From the IMG/VR virus record IMGVR_UViG_3300044477_000030, positions 1 to 64,000 of that record: 64,000 bases of DNA, one strand, 5' to 3'. The position numbers were made by a program, and so were the translations under genes. The notes below the pieces were generated by a model, which saw nothing but the letters and a program-made list of their open reading frames with translations, had not been told where the DNA came from and ran no database searches. Of this stretch, positions 4,043 to 62,786 are shown in pieces. The number at the start of each line of letters is the position of its first letter. The stretch's first letter is position 1. The stretch comes from a virus. Taxonomy: Duplodnaviria; Caudoviricetes.

Positions 4043-5281
4043 ATGCTCAAGAAAGCCATACTGAAAAACTACGAATCCCACGAGGACTCCACAATGGAGT
4101 TCTCCCCAGGAATCAATGTCATCATCGGCGACACCGACTCCGGCAAGTCCGGCTCGCTGCGTGGAATTCTTGGCGTCATCACCAATACGATGTTCGGCCT
4201 GGAGCACATCTCCGATTGGATTCGCACCAAGACTGGCACGGTCAAGGCTGGCAAGGAAGGGAGCGTCTCGATTGAGGCTGACGACAAAATCATCACCAGG
4301 TTCCGATCCGACAAGCTGAATGGCTATCGGATGACTGGTGAGCAAGATCTGGGAGCCGTGCGAGACAAGGTTCCAGATTGCGTCGCCAATCATTTGAACG
4401 TCGGAGATGTCAACATCCAACGTCAGTTCAATGCCCCCTTCCTCCTCGGTCTTGGCCCAACCCAAGTGGCCAAATACCTCAACTCCCTTGTCCGTCTGGA
4501 TGTAATTGACAAGTATATCCAGGCCGTCAACAAGAAGGTGCTCGCCAACGGAGCGTCTATATCCAAGGAAGAGGAAGAGATCAAAGCGATCGAGACCCAG
4601 ATCGAATCCTACAAATGGATCGAGGATCTGGAGCCCATCGCCATCCTCATGAAGAATCTCGATGAAGAAATCGCTATGCTGCACAGAAAGCAGGCACGCT
4701 TGAACGAAATGCTCGGAACTTATATTCCAGCCATGCAAAGTGTAGAGAAGGCCAAGGTCAAGGTATCCGCCTCCTCCTTGGTGGAAAGGGCTAAGACCCT
4801 GGCGACGAAGATCGAAGAGAAGAACAGGATGCGCCGGGAGATTGTGTCCCAGCTCGAACAGTTTATGCAGGCAATGGAAAGCGCACAGTTGAGATCCACG
4901 GCCCTGAATCGAGTTGGAGGACTCTATGACCGGATCAAGGAATTAGACGCGGAGCTGAAGACGGCGAAGGCCACGGCGCCCAGGTTGAAGGCTCAACTGG
5001 AAGCCCACGGGATAGCCGCGCTCACGGTAAAGCGTAAAGACAGCATCTCCATGGCGGAAAAATGCGTAAATACCGCCAGGAGCATCGCAACAAAGATTTC
5101 GTCCAAGTTGGAACAATCGGACAAGATCAAGCGGTCGGTTATTTTGTATAATAGTAGCATGGAAAAGATCGCAAAGCTCAAGGATGCTTTGGTTAAGCTG
5201 GAAGCGTCGAGGCCAAAGGTCTGCGAGCTTTGCGGTCGCCCGTTTGAACAAGGAGAAGGTCATGGGCATCAAGGGCAATAG
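4043..5281 (+). CDS. sbcC: SbcC/Rad50-like ATPase, N-terminal half (Walker A, coiled coil, zinc hook)
   Basis: GINVIIGDTDSGKS Walker A, NIQRQF Q-loop, long coiled coil, CELC hook near C-terminus; no Walker B or signature motif. Confidence 0.85.
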   Translation: MLKKAILKNYESHEDSTMEFSPGINVIIGDTDSGKSGSLRGILGVITNTMFGLEHISDWIRTKTGTVKAGKEGSVSIEADDKIITRFRSDKLNGYRMTGEQDLGAVRDKVPDCVANHLNVGDVNIQRQFNAPFLLGLGPTQVAKYLNSLVRLDVIDKYIQAVNKKVLANGASISKEEEEIKAIETQIESYKWIEDLEPIAILMKNLDEEIAMLHRKQARLNEMLGTYIPAMQSVEKAKVKVSASSLVERAKTLATKIEEKNRMRREIVSQLEQFMQAMESAQLRSTALNRVGGLYDRIKELDAELKTAKATAPRLKAQLEAHGIAALTVKRKDSISMAEKCVNTARSIATKISSKLEQSDKIKRSVILYNSSMEKIAKLKDALVKLEASRPKVCELCGRPFEQGEGHGHQGQ

Positions 5282-38932: not shown

Positions 38933-39880
38933 TTACTTCACTGGAACACTTTCTAACGCTCTCCAAATATCGTCGATATTCGGAATTGCTGCGCACCGGC
39001 AGGCAATCTCCTGGCCCGGATGCACTTTTGGCATATTCTCGTCTCTATCCACTAATACCCCATCTCTCATCATCTTGGTTGGATCATCCCATGGACAGAT
39101 CACACCCTGCATGGCCCAATGGGAAGGTTTTGCTCTTGGGTACTTTCCACCGGGTTTCCCGCGAACTTTTTCGTCTAGCGCGGTGCTCCAATCATAGAAA
39201 AGGATACCGGCATCTATCTGACGGGACTTCGTGAATGCGGAATTGAGTTTGGTTATCTGGTCTCTGGCAATCAGCCATGCCCGATATTCAGTCATGTGTG
39301 GGATCTTCAGAAGGATCTCGTCCATCGCATCCTCTGCCCTGAATCCATTCTGCACAGCATTCTCGATGATGCGCCCCACCATCGCAATCTGGTCTTCCCC
39401 CAACTTCTTTATCAAAGTCAGTTGTGTGGTTCTCCATTCCTCCAGGATCGCTTGAGCCCATGGTTCATCTCCCTGGAACAACTGTCCCACCGCGACTTCG
39501 CTGAATTTCTTCCACTGCGAAAGATTGAAGTCGGAAATCTCATTTCCAAAATAAATGAGAGTCGCAACCGTAGCCTCCATTCCCAATTCCGCAGCTTGTT
39601 GTTGCTGGCTGTAAAGCTCTGCGGAAAGATTTGGCCAATCGTTCTCATAGGAATCTTTCTTGGCCTGGGGAGGGAAGATGAAGCGCAAATTCTTTTTAAT
39701 GGCATCCTTCATGGACGGCATGAGCTTGTTGAAATAAGCCATGAGCCAGTTGCCATAATCGGATTCGCCGCCCAAAGGATAAAGCCAAGCCATACCCTTG
39801 AAGGACGGCTTGACAGGCTTGCGCCTCTCGCGGACGGCTTCCCTGTATCGGGAGGCCATCAGTTGAGTGAAGGCTGTCAT
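38933..39880 (-). CDS. Minor head morphogenesis protein (Mu gpF/SPP1 gp7-like)
   Basis: RAWLIARDQITKLN, WSTALDEKVR, HPGQEIACRCAA. Confidence 0.9.
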   Translation of the reverse strand: MTAFTQLMASRYREAVRERRKPVKPSFKGMAWLYPLGGESDYGNWLMAYFNKLMPSMKDAIKKNLRFIFPPQAKKDSYENDWPNLSAELYSQQQQAAELGMEATVATLIYFGNEISDFNLSQWKKFSEVAVGQLFQGDEPWAQAILEEWRTTQLTLIKKLGEDQIAMVGRIIENAVQNGFRAEDAMDEILLKIPHMTEYRAWLIARDQITKLNSAFTKSRQIDAGILFYDWSTALDEKVRGKPGGKYPRAKPSHWAMQGVICPWDDPTKMMRDGVLVDRDENMPKVHPGQEIACRCAAIPNIDDIWRALESVPVK

Positions 39881-41325
39881 CTCTTACGAACCTGGTTGGC
39901 CAGTGGTGCCACTTTCGCCTTTGGCTTGCTTCTGTTCCGTCCTCCGATCGCCGAAGGAGGAGTCATGGAGCCACCTGGAGGTTCAGGAATTCCTGGAGCA
40001 GAACCTTCTTCGGTACTCTCCAAGGATTGCTCGAAGGCATAACCACCAGAGAAGCGCATCTTGCGAACTTCGTCTGCGGAAATAACACCGGCTTGCAGAT
40101 AAATCTGGTCTGCTGCGGCCTGGCGTGCCACCATCTCGACTTGCTGGAGGGAATTCGGAGCCCAGACTGGCAAGAACTCAACTGTGCAATCTTCTTCGGC
40201 CACAGGAGATCCAAGACCGGAGTTGATCAAGTTCATGAGTGTGGAGAGTGGCCCCATCAACTCTGTTTCTTGTTGCGATTCCACTCCATCGTAGTAGTTC
40301 ATCGAATCGCTCTCGCCTGTGGCGTTGGCGCCAGCAGCAGAACGGCCAAACAGACGGGTCACAGGAATCGCGGTGACGCCAGACAGAACCATGAACAGGC
40401 GGTCGATCATTTCAGGAAGGCCGGTGAAATTCAAGGTGTCGCGAATATATTCGTCTTCCTTTCCGATCAAGATCGCATTAAGAATTCCCTTGGATGCCTG
40501 CATGGTGGTGATGCGGGTCATGATCGCATCGACATCATTGGCGTGCAGGATTTCTTCAAGACCGGCCAATTTGTATTTGCCAACGGAAAATTCGGAGGCC
40601 AGTGTGCCTGCGGTAGAAAGACAGATTCCAAGAGAAGAAAGAGTGTCCCAAATTGGCTGAAGCACAGAGATTCCCCAGAAATCATCATCGGTATTAGCGA
40701 TGCGCAAGTTGGTTTCTGGATTTGGCAGTCCACGAAAGATGAGGCAACGGGAAGCATGGATCTTGAATGATCCTCCATACTTCTTGTTGATGGTGAAGTA
40801 TTCATAGGTATCGTAGAAATCGCTTGTGACCGATTTTCCAAATGCCATATCATCCAAAGTCACACGATAGCGCGGATAGATACGGAGCTTCTTGATTTTC
40901 ACTGGCTTTCCCTTGTAAGGAACCAATGGGGAAGAAAGAGAGCCACCACCCTCGGTCTCCATCACAACCATTGAACCGCCAAATAGGCGAGCCCATATGA
41001 TCGCATCGCGCAGGATCTTCTTGACGCTCAACTTCTGCTGTTCCTTGTAGAGAACGCCATCGTTGTCACCAAGGATTTCCCAACCATTGCGAACCATGTC
41101 GTCCGCGACGACATTCACAATGCGAGAAGCAAGACCGTCGCCTGTGTACAACGCCACGAGTTCCGCTTCGGATAGAATCCTTGGAAGCGCAACACCATTC
41201 GACTTCTGCGGGTCGATTCCCTTGCGCCCAACTCCTTTTAGAATATTGGTGAAGCCATCGGCAATCATCTTGTTCTTTGTTCCTGGCGCACTCGCTTGAT
41301 CTTTGACCATATTCTTGTGTTTCAT
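39877..41325 (-). CDS. Portal protein (DUF1073-like)
   Basis: LASRIVNVVADDM.R, ARLFGG, IPVTRLFGRS..G.NATGESD..NYYD; Pro-rich tail. Confidence 0.92.
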   Translation of the reverse strand: MKHKNMVKDQASAPGTKNKMIADGFTNILKGVGRKGIDPQKSNGVALPRILSEAELVALYTGDGLASRIVNVVADDMVRNGWEILGDNDGVLYKEQQKLSVKKILRDAIIWARLFGGSMVVMETEGGGSLSSPLVPYKGKPVKIKKLRIYPRYRVTLDDMAFGKSVTSDFYDTYEYFTINKKYGGSFKIHASRCLIFRGLPNPETNLRIANTDDDFWGISVLQPIWDTLSSLGICLSTAGTLASEFSVGKYKLAGLEEILHANDVDAIMTRITTMQASKGILNAILIGKEDEYIRDTLNFTGLPEMIDRLFMVLSGVTAIPVTRLFGRSAAGANATGESDSMNYYDGVESQQETELMGPLSTLMNLINSGLGSPVAEEDCTVEFLPVWAPNSLQQVEMVARQAAADQIYLQAGVISADEVRKMRFSGGYAFEQSLESTEEGSAPGIPEPPGGSMTPPSAIGGRNRSKPKAKVAPLANQVRKR

Positions 41326-42653
41326 TAAAGCTCCCATAAAATTCTGTTCCCACGATTGCTAGGATCGTTGGGAAAAAATTCCTGACGAAGTATGGAAGAA
41401 AGGGAGTCGGGCGCATCGTCCGGTTCCTCTCCTTCACGATAGTCCAATATCTGATTCAAATATTCTGGATCTGTGTTGTTGTCGAACAAGAGCCGATCCC
41501 AATAATGGCGTCCATAAGAAACAATCTTGATATGCTTGTCCATCTTTTCCTGATAGGAACAAACACGGGCCGGTTTGATTTTGAGATTTGTAGGATCGTT
41601 CGACGCCAACTGTTTTGACACATAACCCTTATCTGGGTTGATTTCGTTGTGAACTCTGGTGCTTCTGTAATTGAGCATGATCTGCTTGATGCGTGGCATG
41701 ACAATATCGACGTGCTCCTTGAAGACCTTGCCGTACACCTGGATCTTCCCATCTTTTCTTTTCGAGGCGATGGTGAGTGCGTTGGTGTGGTCTCCAGAGA
41801 ACTTGGCATCGAGATGGGAAGCAACCCACACATAAGGAACTGTGTGATCCCATTCGGCAAACATAGGATCTGTGAAGATCGCGCCTTCGTCGCTCAAATG
41901 ATTAAGTTCGTAGTTAGCTGCGAAGAGGGATGCTGTCGTGAGTCCCTTGATGCCAGCCAATTCCGCTTCACTGATCAATCCTGTTTGATAACAGTCATAT
42001 CTCGTTGGCTTTGGACACAACTGCCATCCGTCATCCTTATGCCATGGAGTTCCGACGAAGTGTACGGATCTTCCACGGTTGACGATATTGGTGATGATTT
42101 CGCGGATCACATCCTTGGATCTCTCGCGCTTGGCTTTGGAGATACGATCGTTGTATGTGATCAAGTCATCAACCAGAATCGCGCTATAATGGGAACCGGT
42201 GGGAACCGAATCTCCACCGTATGCATCAATTGAACCTTCCTTGGTAATTGATCTCTTGAAACTGAAGGTGAGCTGACCTGTCTTCTTTACCACAAACTTA
42301 GGAGCCTCGCCCATCTGGATCTTAAACAGAGCAGCAATCTCTGGCACTTCCATGTACTTTTCAATCGCCTTCAATGTCTTGCAGGCCTCTGTCCACGTCT
42401 CACGGATCAACATCACAGAATCATCGGGATGAGTCAGGAGCCACCAAATAATTCCCACTTCCGTGACTGCGGTTGTCTTATAACCACCACGGTGCGCCTG
42501 GAGAGAAGTGTGTATCCCCTCTGGAGCACCCCAAACTTCCCAGCACCATTTCGAATGCATATCGGTGAGCAGAGTCTTCCCTGCTAGCCAACCGATCTTA
42601 TGGGGGTTGCGGATGCAATCCTCCAGCATCGAATGTGGATCAATTTTTGTCAT
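41325..42653 (-). CDS. terL: Terminase large subunit
   Basis: HRGGYKTT Walker A-like, ILVDD Walker B, VGTPWH, C-terminal DDAPD nuclease motif. Confidence 0.9.
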   Translation of the reverse strand: MTKIDPHSMLEDCIRNPHKIGWLAGKTLLTDMHSKWCWEVWGAPEGIHTSLQAHRGGYKTTAVTEVGIIWWLLTHPDDSVMLIRETWTEACKTLKAIEKYMEVPEIAALFKIQMGEAPKFVVKKTGQLTFSFKRSITKEGSIDAYGGDSVPTGSHYSAILVDDLITYNDRISKAKRERSKDVIREIITNIVNRGRSVHFVGTPWHKDDGWQLCPKPTRYDCYQTGLISEAELAGIKGLTTASLFAANYELNHLSDEGAIFTDPMFAEWDHTVPYVWVASHLDAKFSGDHTNALTIASKRKDGKIQVYGKVFKEHVDIVMPRIKQIMLNYRSTRVHNEINPDKGYVSKQLASNDPTNLKIKPARVCSYQEKMDKHIKIVSYGRHYWDRLLFDNNTDPEYLNQILDYREGEEPDDAPDSLSSILRQEFFPNDPSNRGNRILWEL

Positions 42654-43542
42654 TGGTCTCCCCGACCACTTCAGCCGGTTGCGCTTGTTTGATTTCCTTA
42701 TCCAACTTTCTCTGCGCATCCCGAAGAACACTTTCCAATTTGACAGCTATCCTTCCAACTTCTTTACCGATTTCGTCAGTGGCGCCTCCATTCTCTGCTG
42801 CTTTGGCGTCCTTCTCAATCTTGATGGCTTCGGAAACAACTTTGAGGAATGCGGTCAATTCCTTGATCGCCGGTCTGCGGTCTGCAAGTTCAATTTCAAT
42901 AACTTCCCTGTCTGCATCCTTGCCGTAAACTTTTGTCTTGATGGACAGGATGGCGGAACGGAGATTGGGAGGGACATCATCCCATGTCGTAAATACAGGA
43001 GAACCGTCAGGGTTGATGAATGTCGCAGGATCATAGAAGGCTTGAGCCCAGAAGGTATCCATGATCTTATTGCGGACTTCAAGCAGACGCCCACCGATGA
43101 ACATGGTGGAATATTCCGTTATGCACTTGGCCACACCCTCGCGAGAGAGCATCCTGGCGCCGAGTTGCATAGCCGTGGATTTCTTCACACAGGAATTTAC
43201 TGCCGTAAGATATGCACTGGTGGCGTCGAACCCGTTCGCACAATATTCCGCCGCGAATCTGGCCTCCTGGATGGAAGCCCCGGTGGATTTCCAATCTGGA
43301 ATGATAGCCTTGATCTCTTCCGGCGTCATCTTCTCTTTGGCATGGCCGTCGGCAATCGCATCGGTCGGAGGCACGGTGGCAGGAACCGAGGCATCCGCCT
43401 GGGCAGCCAACTTTACCCTTGCCTCTTCTTCTGTGATGGGGGTCTGTCCCTTTTCATGCTTGGATCGCCACACCATTGCCTTCGCCTCGTCGTAGAGAGG
43501 GGAGGTTTTGTCGATATATTTTGGTTTGTAGATTTGTGGCAT
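42640..43542 (-). CDS. terS: Terminase small subunit
   Basis: RFAAEY..NGFDATSAY...A.RML HTH, AFYDP, IELADR..A; directly upstream of terL. Confidence 0.8.
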   Translation of the reverse strand: MPQIYKPKYIDKTSPLYDEAKAMVWRSKHEKGQTPITEEEARVKLAAQADASVPATVPPTDAIADGHAKEKMTPEEIKAIIPDWKSTGASIQEARFAAEYCANGFDATSAYLTAVNSCVKKSTAMQLGARMLSREGVAKCITEYSTMFIGGRLLEVRNKIMDTFWAQAFYDPATFINPDGSPVFTTWDDVPPNLRSAILSIKTKVYGKDADREVIEIELADRRPAIKELTAFLKVVSEAIKIEKDAKAAENGGATDEIGKEVGRIAVKLESVLRDAQRKLDKEIKQAQPAEVVGETNDKN

Positions 43543-43678
43543 TTTGAGATTCCTATATGGAATAATACAAAAAATTGAGCTAAACCATCTCAAATTTCTT
43601 CACCCATCCACCCTATTCCACCCTGTAACGTCGAAAGTGCGCAAATTTTTGTATAATGGTAGAAGAAAAGGAGTGTGT

Positions 43679-53482: not shown

Positions 53483-54406
53483 CTAATAGAGATCCAACCG
53501 CAGTTCCTCGGCCTCTTTCTCTGTCAAATCGCCACAATCCCTGGGCTCTCCCTTCGCATTCAATCCGAAATCTGCTTCCACCACACTTGCGGATCTCCCG
53601 CAGGCTGCAAGCTCGCGGGCATAGGACAATGCCTTGGCCTGGGCTTCTGGCTCCGGGTCGAATAGAAAGATGATCTCATCCCAATTGGAAAGCAGGCGGA
53701 TCTGTGCGTTGGTCATAGAGGTGCCATAGGAGCACGCAAATCCCCTTCCCATGCGCCAGGCATCAAAGATACCCTCCACAACAACAATGCGCCTGGAGGT
53801 GGCCAAATGCGCCCCGTAGAGGGTTTCTTTATAATGCATGAGGCATTTTTCCACGGATGGGAACTTGTACCGGTGCTCTTGCTTGTTGGTGATGTCGCGC
53901 CCTTGCCAAGCCACGATTCGTCCATGGAGATCGTGCAGAGGAATAATGATGCGCAGTTGGCAGTCCTCGCCCTCCCAATATTCCATTGGGCCAGTGCCGA
54001 GGATTCCGTATTCGGAGGTCAGGTGATCTGGATCGAAGCCACGACCTTCTATGTATCTGCGATGCCGTTCATTCAATGGCTCGCCTGGAATGGTAATTGA
54101 CGATCGGTATGTGATCTGCTCCTTGACTTGTAGAACCGATTTGCCTTGTCCATCGTTATATTGCTCAATAATGTCCTCTGCTTCGGAATCTGCCACATGG
54201 AGTAGTTTTACGATTAACGATTTGAGTGATCCAGATTTGCAGCGCCAACAAGACACCGATCCGCTTCGAGGATTGACTCCGAGGTGATTTGATCTATCCG
54301 AACAAAAGGGACAACGAATGTGAACGTGGCCCTCGCGTACATTCTTTCCTGCCGTCCAGCATTGGATCTGGTTGTCTCTGAAGAATCTGTATGCGTCGAA
54401 GCTCAT
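53483..54406 (-). CDS. DnaG-like primase (Zn finger plus TOPRIM)
   Basis: CPFC...H...CWRC zinc finger; IIIP...AWQGR; VVEGIFD and FDP TOPRIM motifs. Confidence 0.88.
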   Translation of the reverse strand: MSFDAYRFFRDNQIQCWTAGKNVREGHVHIRCPFCSDRSNHLGVNPRSGSVSCWRCKSGSLKSLIVKLLHVADSEAEDIIEQYNDGQGKSVLQVKEQITYRSSITIPGEPLNERHRRYIEGRGFDPDHLTSEYGILGTGPMEYWEGEDCQLRIIIPLHDLHGRIVAWQGRDITNKQEHRYKFPSVEKCLMHYKETLYGAHLATSRRIVVVEGIFDAWRMGRGFACSYGTSMTNAQIRLLSNWDEIIFLFDPEPEAQAKALSYARELAACGRSASVVEADFGLNAKGEPRDCGDLTEKEAEELRLDLY

Positions 54407-56490: not shown

Positions 56491-56832
56491 TCATTTTGAT
56501 TCCTTGGTTGATGAATTAATTTCTGAATATGCTCCGATTTCCTTCAGCACATCTTCAAGCATCCAGATCGCGAACAAGGCTGTTTGCCCGATGCGTCCAC
56601 GGTAGGTATTCGATGTCCGAACGGATTCAATCTTCTTGCGGATGGCCTGGATTGCCAGATCATATTTAACCCTCGTCCTATGCGCTTCGCCTTGCAATTC
56701 GTTGCATCGGATTTGAAGTTCATTGCAATCATGGAGAAAATTAGCAAGAACACTAGCTTTCCCTGCTTGCCTCGCAGACTTATAGAACCCCTCAAGCTCG
56801 GTCGGGACATATTTTTCCTTTGGTTGATTCAT
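56491..56832 (-). CDS. Hypothetical coiled-coil protein
   Basis: GGA RBS; ATG 1 nt after upstream stop. Confidence 0.6.
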   Translation of the reverse strand: MNQPKEKYVPTELEGFYKSARQAGKASVLANFLHDCNELQIRCNELQGEAHRTRVKYDLAIQAIRKKIESVRTSNTYRGRIGQTALFAIWMLEDVLKEIGAYSEINSSTKESK

Positions 56833-56833
56833 A

Positions 56834-57025
56834 TCATCCATCCTGGTTGAGCAAAAGCGTTGGAGGCATACCGAATTCGGACATGGCGATGATCTTACTG
56901 AACATCGCATCCCGCTGCCGACATTTATCTTCAGCTTCGTGCATGGTCGGAATAGAGTGCTGATGAATTTCCAGTGTTCTAAGTTCACGCTCCCAATCGA
57001 AATATGTAATCAGAAAATGTCTCAT
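56834..57025 (-). CDS. Small hypothetical protein (probably leaderless)
   Basis: TATTAT followed 6 nt later by ATG. Confidence 0.6.
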   Translation of the reverse strand: MRHFLITYFDWERELRTLEIHQHSIPTMHEAEDKCRQRDAMFSKIIAMSEFGMPPTLLLNQDG

Positions 57026-57049
57026 GCCTACATAATACAATTCCAGCCC

Positions 57050-57813
57050 ATAAAAAAGCTAAAGGCTATACCCCAAGATGGAATACAGCCTCTATCAACA
57101 CAAATGTCTAAATAATCGCAATATCTATCAACACAAATGTCTAATCAATTAACATATTATCACCAAATTCTATCTCTTTAACAATCAGAATCAGTAAGTC
57201 TTGAAAACCAAGACATCTATACCCTGGCTTAACAGCCTTAATACATTCCGAGATCGGCAGGCTTCGCCTGGCTCTCGGTCGGGACTCCGACAGGCTTCGC
57301 CTGCTCTCTGTCCCGATTGTAGGTTTTCTTGGTTTCTTTTGTCTGGGAGCCTGGTGCCTGTATTGGCTTTAGCCCTTCTGGGATAGGGGAGTGCTGGAGG
57401 TCTGGACTCCAGAGGATAGAGCTTACCTTACCTATCTGAAAAACAACAAGGTAAAACTTGCCTGTTTCCAGCTAGGTAAAGGTTGCACTTCTGTACAAAG
57501 GGTCGGCTTTTCGGCCTATCGTCCTTCGGACTTCGCTCGATCCAAGTCTGCCCACGGGTCAGCCGGTATGGGAATTTTCGCCTGGTATCGCCTTTGGGGG
57601 CCAAAGCCCCCCTGACGGTCGCTCCTACTGGAGCTATCCTATTCGACCATGCTCTGCCTCGAAAGCAGTCTCCGCCAGTCTTTAGCCAGGCAAGTGCGCG
57701 AAGGCACCCATCGTCCCGACCACCCAAGGCGTCCTAGTCTTGCTGCTGGCAAGTTGCACCCCCATAAGAGATGCCGACCTTGGGCTCCTGTTCCTATATG
57801 GAACCGGCTTTGT
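57050..57813 (-). ncRNA. Candidate large structured non-coding RNA (or structured origin region)
   Basis: Promoter motif 57820-57829, more than 15 stem-loops with G-U pairs favouring the - strand, no credible ORF, terminator-like hairpin 57063-57091. Confidence 0.5.
57091..57144. repeat. 21-bp direct repeat x2 (period 33 bp)
   Basis: TCTATCAACACAAATGTCTAA at 57091-57111 and 57124-57144. Confidence 0.95.
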
Positions 57814-57829
57814 ATTACTATAATACAAA
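57809..57829. promoter_or_regulatory. Palindrome built from two promoter-motif halves
   Basis: TTTGTATTA-CTA-TAATACAAA. Confidence 0.7.
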
Positions 57830-57992
57830 TTTCTTAGACCTTTTTGTGAGATTTGTATAAAAAAGTTGAAATTTCTATACTTGTCTCGGGTGTCCATACA
57901 GTGTAAATAAAAATTTCATTCCAATTTGGAGTGGTTTTTTTTCATTTCGGTATAAAAAAGTTGTATTATATGGGAAAAAGGACGGTATCCAA

Positions 57993-58772
57993 ATGAAGAA
58001 AGCACTATTTCTAAGAACTTGCGACAAAGACGGAAAAGCACACGGTGGTTTTCAATGGCCTTTAAAGGCCGGTGAAACTGTAACCGCTCCAGATTGGGAA
58101 CCGACAAAAGAATGCGGTAAGGGCTTACATGGTTTACTCAATGGCCAAGGCTTTTCGGGACATTTGAGTTCCAAATTGGATGCATTGTGGTTTGTTGTTG
58201 AATCAGATTTGGACAAAGCCATTGACTTGAACGGAAAGCACAAATTTCAGACTTGTAAAGTGGAATTTGTTGGCTCAAAAGAAAAGGCCGTTCAATACAT
58301 GGTTGACCATGGATGCAGCGGGGTTCACTTTTCCACCTTGACCGGCGGTTATGGTTCCACCTTGACCGGCGGTTATGGTTCCACCTTGACCGGCGGTGAT
58401 TGGTGCACCTTGACTGGTGGCAATCGTTCCACCTTGACCGGCGGTGATTGGTGCACCTTGACTGGTGGCAATCGTTCCACCTTGACCGGCGGTGATTGGT
58501 GCACCTTGACCGGAGGTGATCATTCCACCTTGGCCGGAGGCGATCATTCCACCTTGACCGGCGGTGATTGGTGCACCTTGACCGGAGGTGATCATTCCAC
58601 CTTGACTGGTGGCAATCGTTCCACCTTGACCGGCGGTGATGGTTCCACCTTGAGTATTTCATATTGGGATGGAAACAGAAATCGTATTATGATTGGTTAC
58701 ATTGGTGAAAACGGTTTGGAACCAAATGTTGCCTATAAACTCAACGAAAAGCATGAATTTATTAAGGCTTAA
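57993..58772 (+). CDS. Octapeptide-repeat beta-solenoid protein (ice-nucleation-like repeats)
   Basis: N-terminal domain LRTC...HGGFQWP...APDW...ECGKGLHG; 13 x (S/C)TL(T/A)GGxx at 58332-58643. Confidence 0.9.
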   Translation: MKKALFLRTCDKDGKAHGGFQWPLKAGETVTAPDWEPTKECGKGLHGLLNGQGFSGHLSSKLDALWFVVESDLDKAIDLNGKHKFQTCKVEFVGSKEKAVQYMVDHGCSGVHFSTLTGGYGSTLTGGYGSTLTGGDWCTLTGGNRSTLTGGDWCTLTGGNRSTLTGGDWCTLTGGDHSTLAGGDHSTLTGGDWCTLTGGDHSTLTGGNRSTLTGGDGSTLSISYWDGNRNRIMIGYIGENGLEPNVAYKLNEKHEFIKA

Positions 58773-60864: not shown

Positions 60865-61102
60865 CAAACTTTGTTCGAAGTCATTTAAGAAGAAATTGCA
60901 GAAGCATCTAGAGCATCTAAATTGGCTCATGATCCCGAACACAAAAGACGGACGGGCATTTCTTGAGGTTGAAATACTCGGAGTTATCTTGGATTTTTAT
61001 GCTTTCGATTTTGTCCATGTTAAAATGAGAGACGACGGCAGAATCGCGGATGTATCCACGAGGCGTGGAGAAATAAATTCCGAGGTAAAGATTGTTTTCT
61101 AG
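60857..61102 (+). CDS. Hypothetical protein
   Basis: ORF filling the gap before the helicase; start uncertain. Confidence 0.5.
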   Translation: MNNKLCSKSFKKKLQKHLEHLNWLMIPNTKDGRAFLEVEILGVILDFYAFDFVHVKMRDDGRIADVSTRRGEINSEVKIVF

Positions 61103-62786
61103 ACGAAAGATCCCGTCAAGATATGAAGCGAAGCTGGAAAACAACCAGCTTCTCCTTTCTTTTTTCGAACCAAACCCTGTGAAATGGCAGGAGCTTGTGG
61201 GGTTCATCAAAGCGTTCAATGGCGCCAGGTTTAACGGTGCTACGAAAAAATGGACGATACCAAACACCGAAGAAAACCGACAGATGGTGAAGATCCGGGG
61301 TTTTGCGCTGAAAGCTCCTGTTTCCGAATCGAAAACACTTTATCCAAAGAGAACGCCTTCGTGGATGTTCTACGAGTTTGAAGAACCTCCTCATAATTGG
61401 TTGAGACCATACCAAATAGAAGGAATGAGATTGTTATGTCAGAGAGGAGATAAGGGCGCTTTGATATTGGCAGAACCAGGATTAGGGAAAACACCTCTGG
61501 CGATAGCATATATTGATTATACAAAAACATCAAAAACCCTCATAGTGGCCACCGCGCTCACCAAGAAGCAATGGCAGGAACGCTTCGACCAGTTCACCCC
61601 AGGGAAGAAGATTCATATCATCTATGGTGAAACACCATACGAATTGCCCAACGCCGACATCTACATCATAAATTGGGACATACTAGGAGATTGGGTGGGA
61701 CATAAGCAGCCGTGTTTTTCTAAGGAAGAGCCAACGAAGGTTGTAGCCGAACGGTTCGTCGGAGATGGCCCGCTTTGCAACATCGGGCTCAAGTTGGTCA
61801 TCGCCGACGAAGCCCAGGCGATCGGCAACGAAACCTCGATCCGGTACAAGGCGTTGAGGGAGGTCTGCAAGGCTTCGGGGAGGAGACCCGTCCTTCTGAC
61901 CGGCACTCCGATGAACACCAGACCAGATCAGTTCTGGACACTACTGAATTTGGTAGCTCCAGACATTTTTCCAAACCACATGAAGTTCCGCAGCGAGTTT
62001 TGCGCTCCGAGTGTGGGTTCGTTCGGTGTCCGGTATGATGGGGCCGAGAATATGGACAAGCTCCATTATATGATCCAGCCCATCTCCGCCCGGCATCTGA
62101 AGAAGGATGTGATGAACGATCTGCCGGAAAAGACGGTATCCGTCCTGCCGGTAGAAATCGACTTGGATTCCTACCATAAGATCGAGGAGAAGGCGTTTGC
62201 CCGCGATGGACGTACCATGGAGCAAATCAAGCGCGATGTGGCGGAGCTTCAGCGTTCCTCATTCATGTTCAAGCGCAAAGCCTGTGTGGATACCATAGCC
62301 GATTTCCTCAACAACCATCCGAACGAGAAGGCGGTGGTTTTTGCTTGGCACAAGGATGTGGTGCAACTCCTTGCCACAGATCTCGATAAATATGCACCAG
62401 CGGTCGTGAACAGCACCGTGACCGGCAAAGACCGCGAGATTGAGATGAAGCGGTTCCGCGAAGATCCGCAGTGCCGCTTAATTATCGGCAACATCAAGGC
62501 GCTCGGTGTCGGGGTGGATGGGTTGCAGGGGGTGACATCCTATGGATTCTTCGTCGAGTTCGGATCCGCCCCAGGAGATCACGACCAGGCAGAATCGAGA
62601 CTGTGGAGATCTGGGCAATATTTACCGGTTTTCTGGACATACATCATCGCCCGAGGCACAATCGACGACGACAACATGGCAAAACTCGACCAACGCAGGA
62701 AGAACATATCCCTGGGGTTGGATGGGATGGCAAACGAAGAAGAATTCCTACTTTCTTTGCTCAAGAAACACCTAAAATTTGTATAA
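61092..62786 (+). CDS. SNF2/SMARCAL1-like helicase with N-terminal HARP-like region
   Basis: LRPYQIEG, LAEPGLGKT, VIADEA, LLTGTP, GVGVDGL, DQAESRLWRSGQ; GAGG RBS before TTG. Confidence 0.92.
   Translation: MFSRRKIPSRYEAKLENNQLLLSFFEPNPVKWQELVGFIKAFNGARFNGATKKWTIPNTEENRQMVKIRGFALKAPVSESKTLYPKRTPSWMFYEFEEPPHNWLRPYQIEGMRLLCQRGDKGALILAEPGLGKTPLAIAYIDYTKTSKTLIVATALTKKQWQERFDQFTPGKKIHIIYGETPYELPNADIYIINWDILGDWVGHKQPCFSKEEPTKVVAERFVGDGPLCNIGLKLVIADEAQAIGNETSIRYKALREVCKASGRRPVLLTGTPMNTRPDQFWTLLNLVAPDIFPNHMKFRSEFCAPSVGSFGVRYDGAENMDKLHYMIQPISARHLKKDVMNDLPEKTVSVLPVEIDLDSYHKIEEKAFARDGRTMEQIKRDVAELQRSSFMFKRKACVDTIADFLNNHPNEKAVVFAWHKDVVQLLATDLDKYAPAVVNSTVTGKDREIEMKRFREDPQCRLIIGNIKALGVGVDGLQGVTSYGFFVEFGSAPGDHDQAESRLWRSGQYLPVFWTYIIARGTIDDDNMAKLDQRRKNISLGLDGMANEEEFLLSLLKKHLKFV

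Follow-up and report, generated by a model that had tools for sequence, protein, structure and literature searches.

A possible orphan structured non-coding RNA at a divergent gene junction of an uncultivated sediment myovirus

Here, we analysed a unit located between two divergent gene blocks of an uncultivated 76.6-kb myovirus from sediment, which we tentatively read, with chances somewhat short of even, as an independently transcribed, structured orphan non-coding RNA of 762 nt. The unit is preceded by a consensus copy of a promoter motif that is used throughout the phage genome and ends in an intrinsic-terminator-like hairpin; it lacks coding signal and its folding energy exceeds that of shuffled sequences. 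The combination of these four features makes a large non-coding RNA the most economical reading. Transcription would start around position 57813 from the phage's own promoter and would stop at the hairpin and U-run near position 57052, yielding a minus-strand RNA, of which the first ~610 nt are GC-rich, with a predicted fold of several closed multi-helix domains. The AU-rich final ~150 nt would carry two 21-nt repeats followed by the terminator. As the most likely mode of action, the RNA would work in trans: it would accumulate during infection and, once folded, act as a scaffold or decoy towards one or several proteins. Roles of this kind are likewise presumed for other large RNAs from phages that have no known function. 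An earlier note on the same DNA had suggested a new large non-coding RNA at this position. The part of this suggestion that concerns a separate non-coding unit is borne out by the promoter, the terminator, the codon scores and the predicted fold, but no homologue was found to back it.

The window, i.e. the whole 64,000-nt stretch of DNA that was analysed, corresponds to bases 1-64000 of an IMG/VR virus record of 76,658 bp with direct terminal repeats. Genes for a head maturation protease, tail sheath, tape measure and baseplate are those of a myovirus-type phage. A sediment metagenome DNA run is the sole public run with the stretch and probably its source; no RNA run carrying the locus is listed among the public sequencing runs. 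Since a single unitig spans the unit in the source run and shows no variants, no population variation is usable at this site. Sampling of the lineage is sparse: among cultured phages, the best match to the portal reaches 31% identity, and in a search of 5.8 billion proteins the closest helicase and the closest primase were 46% and 59% identical, respectively. The earlier note had placed the unit at the divergence point of two gene blocks, and this is indeed its position: it is flanked by the leftward block, whose first gene has its ATG at 57025, and by the DUF7666 gene that opens the rightward block, at the point where the primase-side and the helicase/polymerase-side genes diverge and the cumulative GC skew has its minimum. 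A second, diverged copy of the DUF7666/Bbp36-like repeat protein is found from genome position ~75,990 onward, behind a promoter at 75965, and in contigs of the source run this paralogue appears as a variant of ~84% identity over 58007-58328. The features of the unit and its surroundings are compiled in Table 1.

Table 1 Features of the unit and of its genomic surroundings (positions refer to the window).
Feature	Position	Strand	Remarks
Promoter motif aaatTTGTATTAT	57820..57832	-	From motif enrichment and leave-one-out score
Inverted repeat TTTGTATTA-TAG-TAATACAAA	57809..57829	.	9-bp arms, 3-nt spacer; read directly
Predicted transcription start (A)	57813	-	From the leaderless spacing rule
Palindrome TTCCATATAGGAA	57791..57803	.	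First 5' hairpin of the predicted RNA, or DNA operator
GC-rich 5' domain	57346..57788 (RNA 26-468)	-	Closed by GGAGCC/GGCUCC; predicted
Sub-domain A	57550-57730	-	Within the 5' domain; predicted
Sub-domain B	57414-57543	-	Within the 5' domain; predicted
3' domain	57205..57335 (RNA 479-609)	-	Closed by 9-bp helix AAACCAAGA/UCUUGGUUU; predicted
Two abutting hairpins, each tipped CAGGC-GAA-GCCUG	57248..57316	-	
99-aa chance ORF	57428..57727	-	TTG start, no ribosome-binding site; judged non-coding
84-aa chance ORF	57483-57737	+	Judged non-coding
Two direct repeats	57091..57149	.	21 nt identical, 26 nt at 92%, 33 bp apart
Intrinsic-terminator-like hairpin and U6 run	57052..57094	-	Predicted 3' end of the RNA
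Copies of TCTATCAACA	46410, 46579, 57091, 57124	+	With the minus-strand copy, 4 of 5 in non-coding DNA
Copy of TCTATCAACA	63042	-	
Next promoter motif TTGTATTAT with ATG 6 nt on	57023..57040	-	Starts the leftward block, bounds the unit
Portal gene	39877-41337		
Terminase gene	41325-42731		
DnaG-type primase gene	53483-54406	-	
DUF7666 protein gene	57993-58772		Opens the rightward block; relative of Bbp36 of Bordetella phage BPP-1
SNF2 helicase gene	61092-62786	+	

The promoter assignment is based on the motif TTGTATWAT, which occurs 15 times in the window (0.43 copies expected) and 18 times in the 76.6-kb genome. Nearly all copies are located closely 5' of start codons, with aaaTTTGTATWATa as extended consensus; the phage promoter shows a conserved -10-type element and no evident conserved -35. 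With 22.1 bits and a flank score of 6.6 in a leave-one-out PWM, the copy at 57820-57828, from which the unit would be transcribed, is mid-range. At six of the 18 promoter sites (window positions 5144, 8822, 57040(-), 61524(-) and 62779; genome position 70319), the motif is followed by an ATG at a distance of exactly 6 nt. Such spacing is a pattern of leaderless mRNAs and sets the first transcribed base at the seventh base after the motif, from which the start of the predicted RNA was derived. Judged from the spacing, the phage seems to make many leaderless mRNAs; other genes of the same genome have strong Shine-Dalgarno sites. One of the sites (61516-61524, minus strand), a TTGTATAAT motif with an ATG at leaderless distance, is situated antisense within the SNF2 helicase gene; it may have arisen by chance, give rise to an antisense transcript or belong to a small overlapping gene. 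Another promoter motif, at position 1746, is followed by ~600 nt without a long ORF that include the gene for tRNA-Val (2170-2250); this plus-strand stretch (1746-2250) is a candidate for another transcription unit that is largely non-coding.

Two palindromes accompany the start of the unit. The promoter motif had been reported to lie inside a palindrome, and this was found in the form of a 9-3-9 inverted repeat, which contains TTGTATTAT, overlaps the promoter and lies mostly 5' of the predicted RNA start; it appears operator-like. The second palindrome, TTCCATATAGGAA, is predicted to form a hairpin with a base-pair probability of 1.00 and has exactly two copies in the window. The other copy (43550-43562) directly adjoins the promoter at 43570(-), which is located upstream of the terminase gene region, so that each copy sits shortly downstream of a TTGTATTAT promoter. 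This arrangement suggests the 13-bp palindrome as a candidate shared operator of both promoters. At the opposite end of the unit, the terminator-like hairpin of the earlier note was recovered as a stem spanning 57094-57060 with 16 pairs, G-U pairs included, and a subsequent U-run (pairing probability 0.96).

The unit had originally been described as devoid of ORFs. Taken literally, this does not hold, since a 99-aa ORF on the minus strand and an 84-aa ORF on the plus strand exist, but both score as non-coding. A codon log-odds model, for which 26 long genes served as the training set (mean +0.22, minimum +0.04), assigned values of -0.15 and -0.17 to the two ORFs, respectively. All three minus-strand frames are interrupted and their translations are noise-like. 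The product of the 99-aa ORF has no relative among 5.8 billion proteins, and the apparent relative of the 84-aa product turned out to be an artefact, namely a weak 27-bit match over 35 residues that was multiplied by the 22 repeats of a giant protein. A protein-coding gene was rejected on the grounds of a codon usage unlike that of the genome and the lack of real protein relatives, and the unit is treated as non-coding.

The core of the unit, ~610 nt in length, has a GC content of 55-60%, compared to ~30% in the flanks. For a 601-nt core, the calculated folding energy was -230.4 kcal/mol with a z-score of -5.8 (20 dinucleotide shuffles); RNA positions 1-612 reached a z-score of -3.8, with none of 60 dinucleotide shuffles being as stable. 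According to the partition function, ~30 helices have a pairing probability above 0.8, many of them above 0.9. These helices would be arranged in two domains. The 5' domain, with sub-domains A and B, has helices with pairing probabilities of 0.8-1.0. In the 3' domain (0.88-1.0), which has an A-rich linker on its 5' side, the closing 9-bp helix would enclose the twin hairpins and one more hairpin. All stems listed in the earlier note, both CAGGC-GAA-GCCTG hairpins among them, are present, either in place or shifted by a few bases. Fold predictions of 600-nt RNAs from a single genome are generally unreliable.

The excess in folding energy is not confined to one strand. The plus strand yielded a z-score of -3.9 in both shuffle tests, on par with the minus strand. 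In a fold scan of the whole genome in 300-nt windows, those of the unit were among the strongest outliers; 57201-57500 was the top plus-strand window (z -3.4) and folds better there than on the minus strand, on which the windows of the unit (z -2.2 to -2.5) are outliers, albeit not extreme ones. G-U pairs had been taken to favour the minus strand consistently. A slight excess was indeed observed (20 on the minus versus 14 on the plus strand; 3 versus 0 beside shared helices), but the claimed consistency is weak, given equal energy z-scores on both strands. Since the fold excess is equal on both strands, it provides no pointer to an RNA as opposed to DNA hairpins, nor to the minus strand; the strand was assigned from the promoter and the terminator.

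A further argument had been drawn from the GCGAAGC mini-hairpin and its use in phage origins and promoters. This argument is weakened, because the tandem 13-mer is a generic intergenic repeat in unrelated bacteria. The pattern CAGGCGAAGCCTG-N10-40-CAGGCGAAGCCTG was detected at 82 places in GTDB genomes of unrelated bacteria from many phyla, and all 82 are tandem or dispersed REP-like intergenic repeats unrelated to the phage locus. These loci rule out the twin-hairpin pattern as a family marker. The GCGAAGC hairpin rather seems to be a stable module that is favoured in general, and it marks neither a family nor phage origins specifically. A unit of the form TTCCCCTCC..GGAGGGGTGG-CAGGCGAAGCCTG-ACGGGGTGG recurs in Chlorobiota, Calditrichia, Nitrospirae, Planctomycetia, Alphaproteobacteria and others, and a ~52-nt repeat was found 5' of a conserved Streptomyces gene start (ATGCGCATTGTGGTTCTGGCC...).

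Homologues of the unit were searched for in several collections. None was found in INPHARED (blastn, distant mode), and exact-pattern scans of IMG/VR gave 0 matches for one core pattern and 0 matches for one twin-hairpin pattern. Single-protein scans with the portal and the primase found no relatives; the neighbour search with DUF7666 led to one distant locus, which does not contain the unit, and a primase alignment search of IMG/VR returned 80 loci. The set of relatives was compiled from helicase and primase searches of 5.8 billion proteins, 12 contig look-ups and the IMG/VR primase loci. Searches with the RNA against ~1.6 Mb from 90-odd relatives' loci (nhmmer and blastn) were negative. BLAST against the whole records of 22 IMG/VR relatives produced chance matches of 14-22 nt, of which the one inspected is located inside a gene, and a covariance model of sub-domain A found only itself in the relatives' loci and the 22 IMG/VR records. 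Protein searches with the two chance ORFs, by which homologous RNAs recorded as spurious proteins might have come to light, yielded no homologue either. None of the collections searched contains a homologue; this counts against the reading as a non-coding RNA, the fold being backed neither by covariation nor by signs of selection.

For all three nearest relatives (primase 57-59% identical), the contigs break off short of the corresponding junction. The nearest relative is represented by four JGI contigs, L003/L004 and L006/L007, and both pairs end at the equivalent divergent junction, stopping 61 nt and 132 nt before the first genes. The junction-end stretches are L003:1-61, L004:1-61, L006:1-132 and L007:1-72, with the same break in two independent JGI assemblies. 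The shared break might indicate a repeat, a variable segment or a genome end at this site. The gap is bordered by contigs Ga0308317_1308754 and Ga0371477_139735 on the primase side and by Ga0308317_1266643 and Ga0371477_117846 on the helicase side (JGI samples 3300028549 and 3300033558). Contig L007 begins just before a terminator hairpin that faces the leftward genes, a layout as in the present phage. The contig of a second relative (L188, Ga0170573_10214224 from sample 3300013232), whose primase is 57% identical, shows synteny on the Lar-like-to-primase side and ends ~1.65 kb before the primase. Two metagenome scans with the contig ends of the nearest relative gave 0 matches, and the samples of this relative are apparently outside the scanned collection.

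In a metagenomic phage of the same primase clade (53% identity), we found an ORF-free, GC-rich unit of ~690 nt (L008:12945-13645, plus strand). It has a promoter-like motif, TTCCGTATAAT, which is repeated before the next operon, as well as a strong terminator and three CUCGG-GAAAGA-type hairpins, and it has no Rfam match. This unit is located downstream of the primase, whereas the present one is situated at a divergent junction. The k-mers shared by both units are at shuffle level, and nhmmer and the sub-domain A covariance model were negative. Without similarity in sequence or model, the L008 unit is to be regarded as an analogy only. A scan of the relatives for islands based on ORF gaps was discarded as unreliable, as an 'island' in L043 proved to be coding and the L008 unit was missed.

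That the unit is unique to this genome also fits a rather doubtful alternative, according to which it has no structure-dependent function. It would then be decayed acquired DNA behind a promoter or harbour unrecognised tiny genes, and the excess in folding energy would result from inverted repeats without a role. In its favour, the excess is strand-symmetric, and, on the contigs that reach the junction (L003/L006), the genes adjacent to it differ between the present phage and its nearest relative, which indicates that the region turns over quickly. What this explanation leaves unaccounted for is the full consensus promoter with a matching terminator, the fold z-scores of -3.8 to -5.8 and the lack of protein similarity in all frames. 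Moreover, the GC content of the core is 25 points above that of the adjoining intergenic DNA, a contrast that decaying sequence of this genome would not usually show. We regard a stand-alone structured RNA as the better reading.

One part of the unit looks different. The AT-rich tail of ~110-150 nt, with a GC content of about 30%, carries the two 21-bp repeats reported earlier, and we confirmed both copies (57091-57111 and 57124-57144) as identical to each other, unique in the window and three helical turns apart. They could function as iterons or operators, or belong to the tail of the RNA. The 10-mer repeat core TCTATCAACA has five copies in the genome compared to ~0.15 expected, two of which are found in a separate non-coding stretch at 46.4-46.6 kb; this distribution suits a candidate site for a phage DNA-binding protein. 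To the detriment of the non-coding RNA reading, the direct repeats and the low GC content of this tail are reminiscent of a DNA site rather than of a segment of a folded RNA. In a rival explanation, which we consider unlikely, the unit is part of the phage replication origin. A transcript running into the AT-rich repeat segment (57095-57205) would activate the origin or prime replication via an R-loop, by a logic as in ColE1 RNA II and in T7/T4. An initiator would bind to the 21-bp repeats, and the GCGAAGC hairpins could extrude in single-stranded DNA. The low-GC segment with its two identical direct repeats and the enrichment of TCTATCAACA also outside the unit, as for a DNA-binding site, are in line with an origin, and strand-symmetric fold potential is expected for DNA hairpins. 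In addition, the distance of ~600 nt from the promoter to the AT-rich segment resembles that in ColE1 RNA II. The divergence of the replication-gene blocks at the cumulative GC-skew minimum points in the same direction, but GC skew here also follows gene orientation and is thus not independent evidence. Iteron origins usually contain three or more repeats, along with an AT-rich unwinding element and an initiator gene or DnaA boxes close by; there are only two repeats in this case. Neither DnaA-box-like sites near the unit nor an antisense regulator or an adjacent initiator gene were identified, and a GC-rich structured stretch of 600 nt would be superfluous for mere transcriptional activation.

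We attach even less weight to a long cis-acting leader of the leftward operon, which appears very improbable. Such a leader, made from the strong promoter at 57828, would stop at the terminator or conditionally read through to the genes from 57025, with read-through being set by a phage factor or by the twin hairpins acting on RNA polymerase in the manner of HK022 put RNA. The promoter motif in front of these genes (57032-57040) has atypical flanks, with 1.6 bits compared to 16-27 for most other sites and a flank score of -13.9; given these poor flanks, the downstream genes may depend partly on read-through, and some control of this type is conceivable. Two abutting hairpins upstream of a terminator would fit as well, as would the terminator itself, which is moderate with its U-run set two bases off the stem. 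However, the ATG at 57025 is at the exact leaderless distance from the motif at 57040, as in five other genes, which argues for a transcription start of its own. Known put, nut and riboswitch leaders have lengths of about 70-250 nt, compared to ~700 nt for the unit, and no Rfam cis-regulatory family was matched. A retron msr-msd, a DGR template and a group II intron were excluded, since the genome lacks a reverse transcriptase (no RVT_1 match in the 76.6-kb record, with positive controls).

Having weighed these alternatives, we return to the non-coding RNA and its relation to known families. An Rfam 15 scan, which the earlier note had named as a check, gave no match at gathering thresholds over the whole window, with GOLLD, ROOL, OLE, HEARO and raiA among the families covered, and nothing was detected in eight loci of relatives either. 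At E<=10, the region 56800-58100 produced four junk matches with E values of 3.5-6, far below the gathering scores. ARAGORN did not detect a tmRNA or tRNA-like domain with a tag ORF in the unit, and the sole tRNA of the window, tRNA-Val at 2170-2250, is 55 kb away, so that the adjacency to tRNA genes that is frequent in GOLLD and ROOL is absent. Putative antisense targets of the RNA in the phage genome were matched at chance level only. It appears improbable that the unit represents the first known case of a new class of large structured phage RNAs that work at a replication/early-control junction. Versions of this idea would be a ColE1-RNA-II-like preprimer in a lytic myovirus, which folds first and then hands its AU-rich tail to an iteron-marked origin, or a self-assembling ornate RNA similar to ROOL and GOLLD. 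In that case, and provided that equivalents in function are located at the unassembled junctions of the nearest relatives and in the L008 unit, RNAs of this type would evolve rapidly within the phage clade while keeping their position. As a singleton from an uncultivated phage, the unit is a candidate for now and not a discovery. Its defined predicted ends, its position at a divergent control junction next to replication genes and the possibly protein-binding repeats in its tail make a link between large RNAs and replication or early regulation testable.

Among known systems, ColE1 RNA II is a preprimer, and the origins of T7 and T4 are composed of a promoter and an AT-rich segment. The present unit is similar in having a promoter a few hundred bases before an AT-rich segment beside replication genes, and its predicted transcript could hybridise to the template. 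ColE1-type origins rely on a persistent RNA-DNA hybrid, RNase H processing and an antisense RNA for copy control. No RNase H site and no antisense RNA I are known for the unit, and its repeats and terminator have no counterpart in ColE1. In HK022 put RNA, two adjacent stem-loops in the nascent RNA make the polymerase read through terminators; the two abutting hairpins of the unit, 190 nt upstream of the terminator, may resemble them. GOLLD and ROOL are large ornate RNAs of phages and prophages, often encoded beside tRNA genes. The unit shares with them the location in a phage, the size range of ~600-800 nt, its own transcription unit and the many hairpins, the latter features being predicted from sequence in our case, but it is a single sequence, matches no Rfam model and does not lie beside tRNA genes. 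A precedent is found in the Vibrio phage ICP1, which produces an abundant ORF-less transcript of ~800 nt from an ORF-free gap of ~1 kb (PMC7567579). In both cases, a large non-coding transcript that does not adjoin tRNAs is assigned to an ORF-free gap, in ICP1 that of a lytic phage; the role of the ICP1 transcript, which was demonstrated by RNA-seq, is unknown (PMC7567579), whereas transcription of the present unit is a prediction. We propose the unit as a new and so far orphan candidate of a known kind, the large phage non-coding RNAs of unknown function. GOLLD, ROOL and the ICP1 transcript are abundant and elaborate and have no known job, and each independent, well-bounded example adds a test case.
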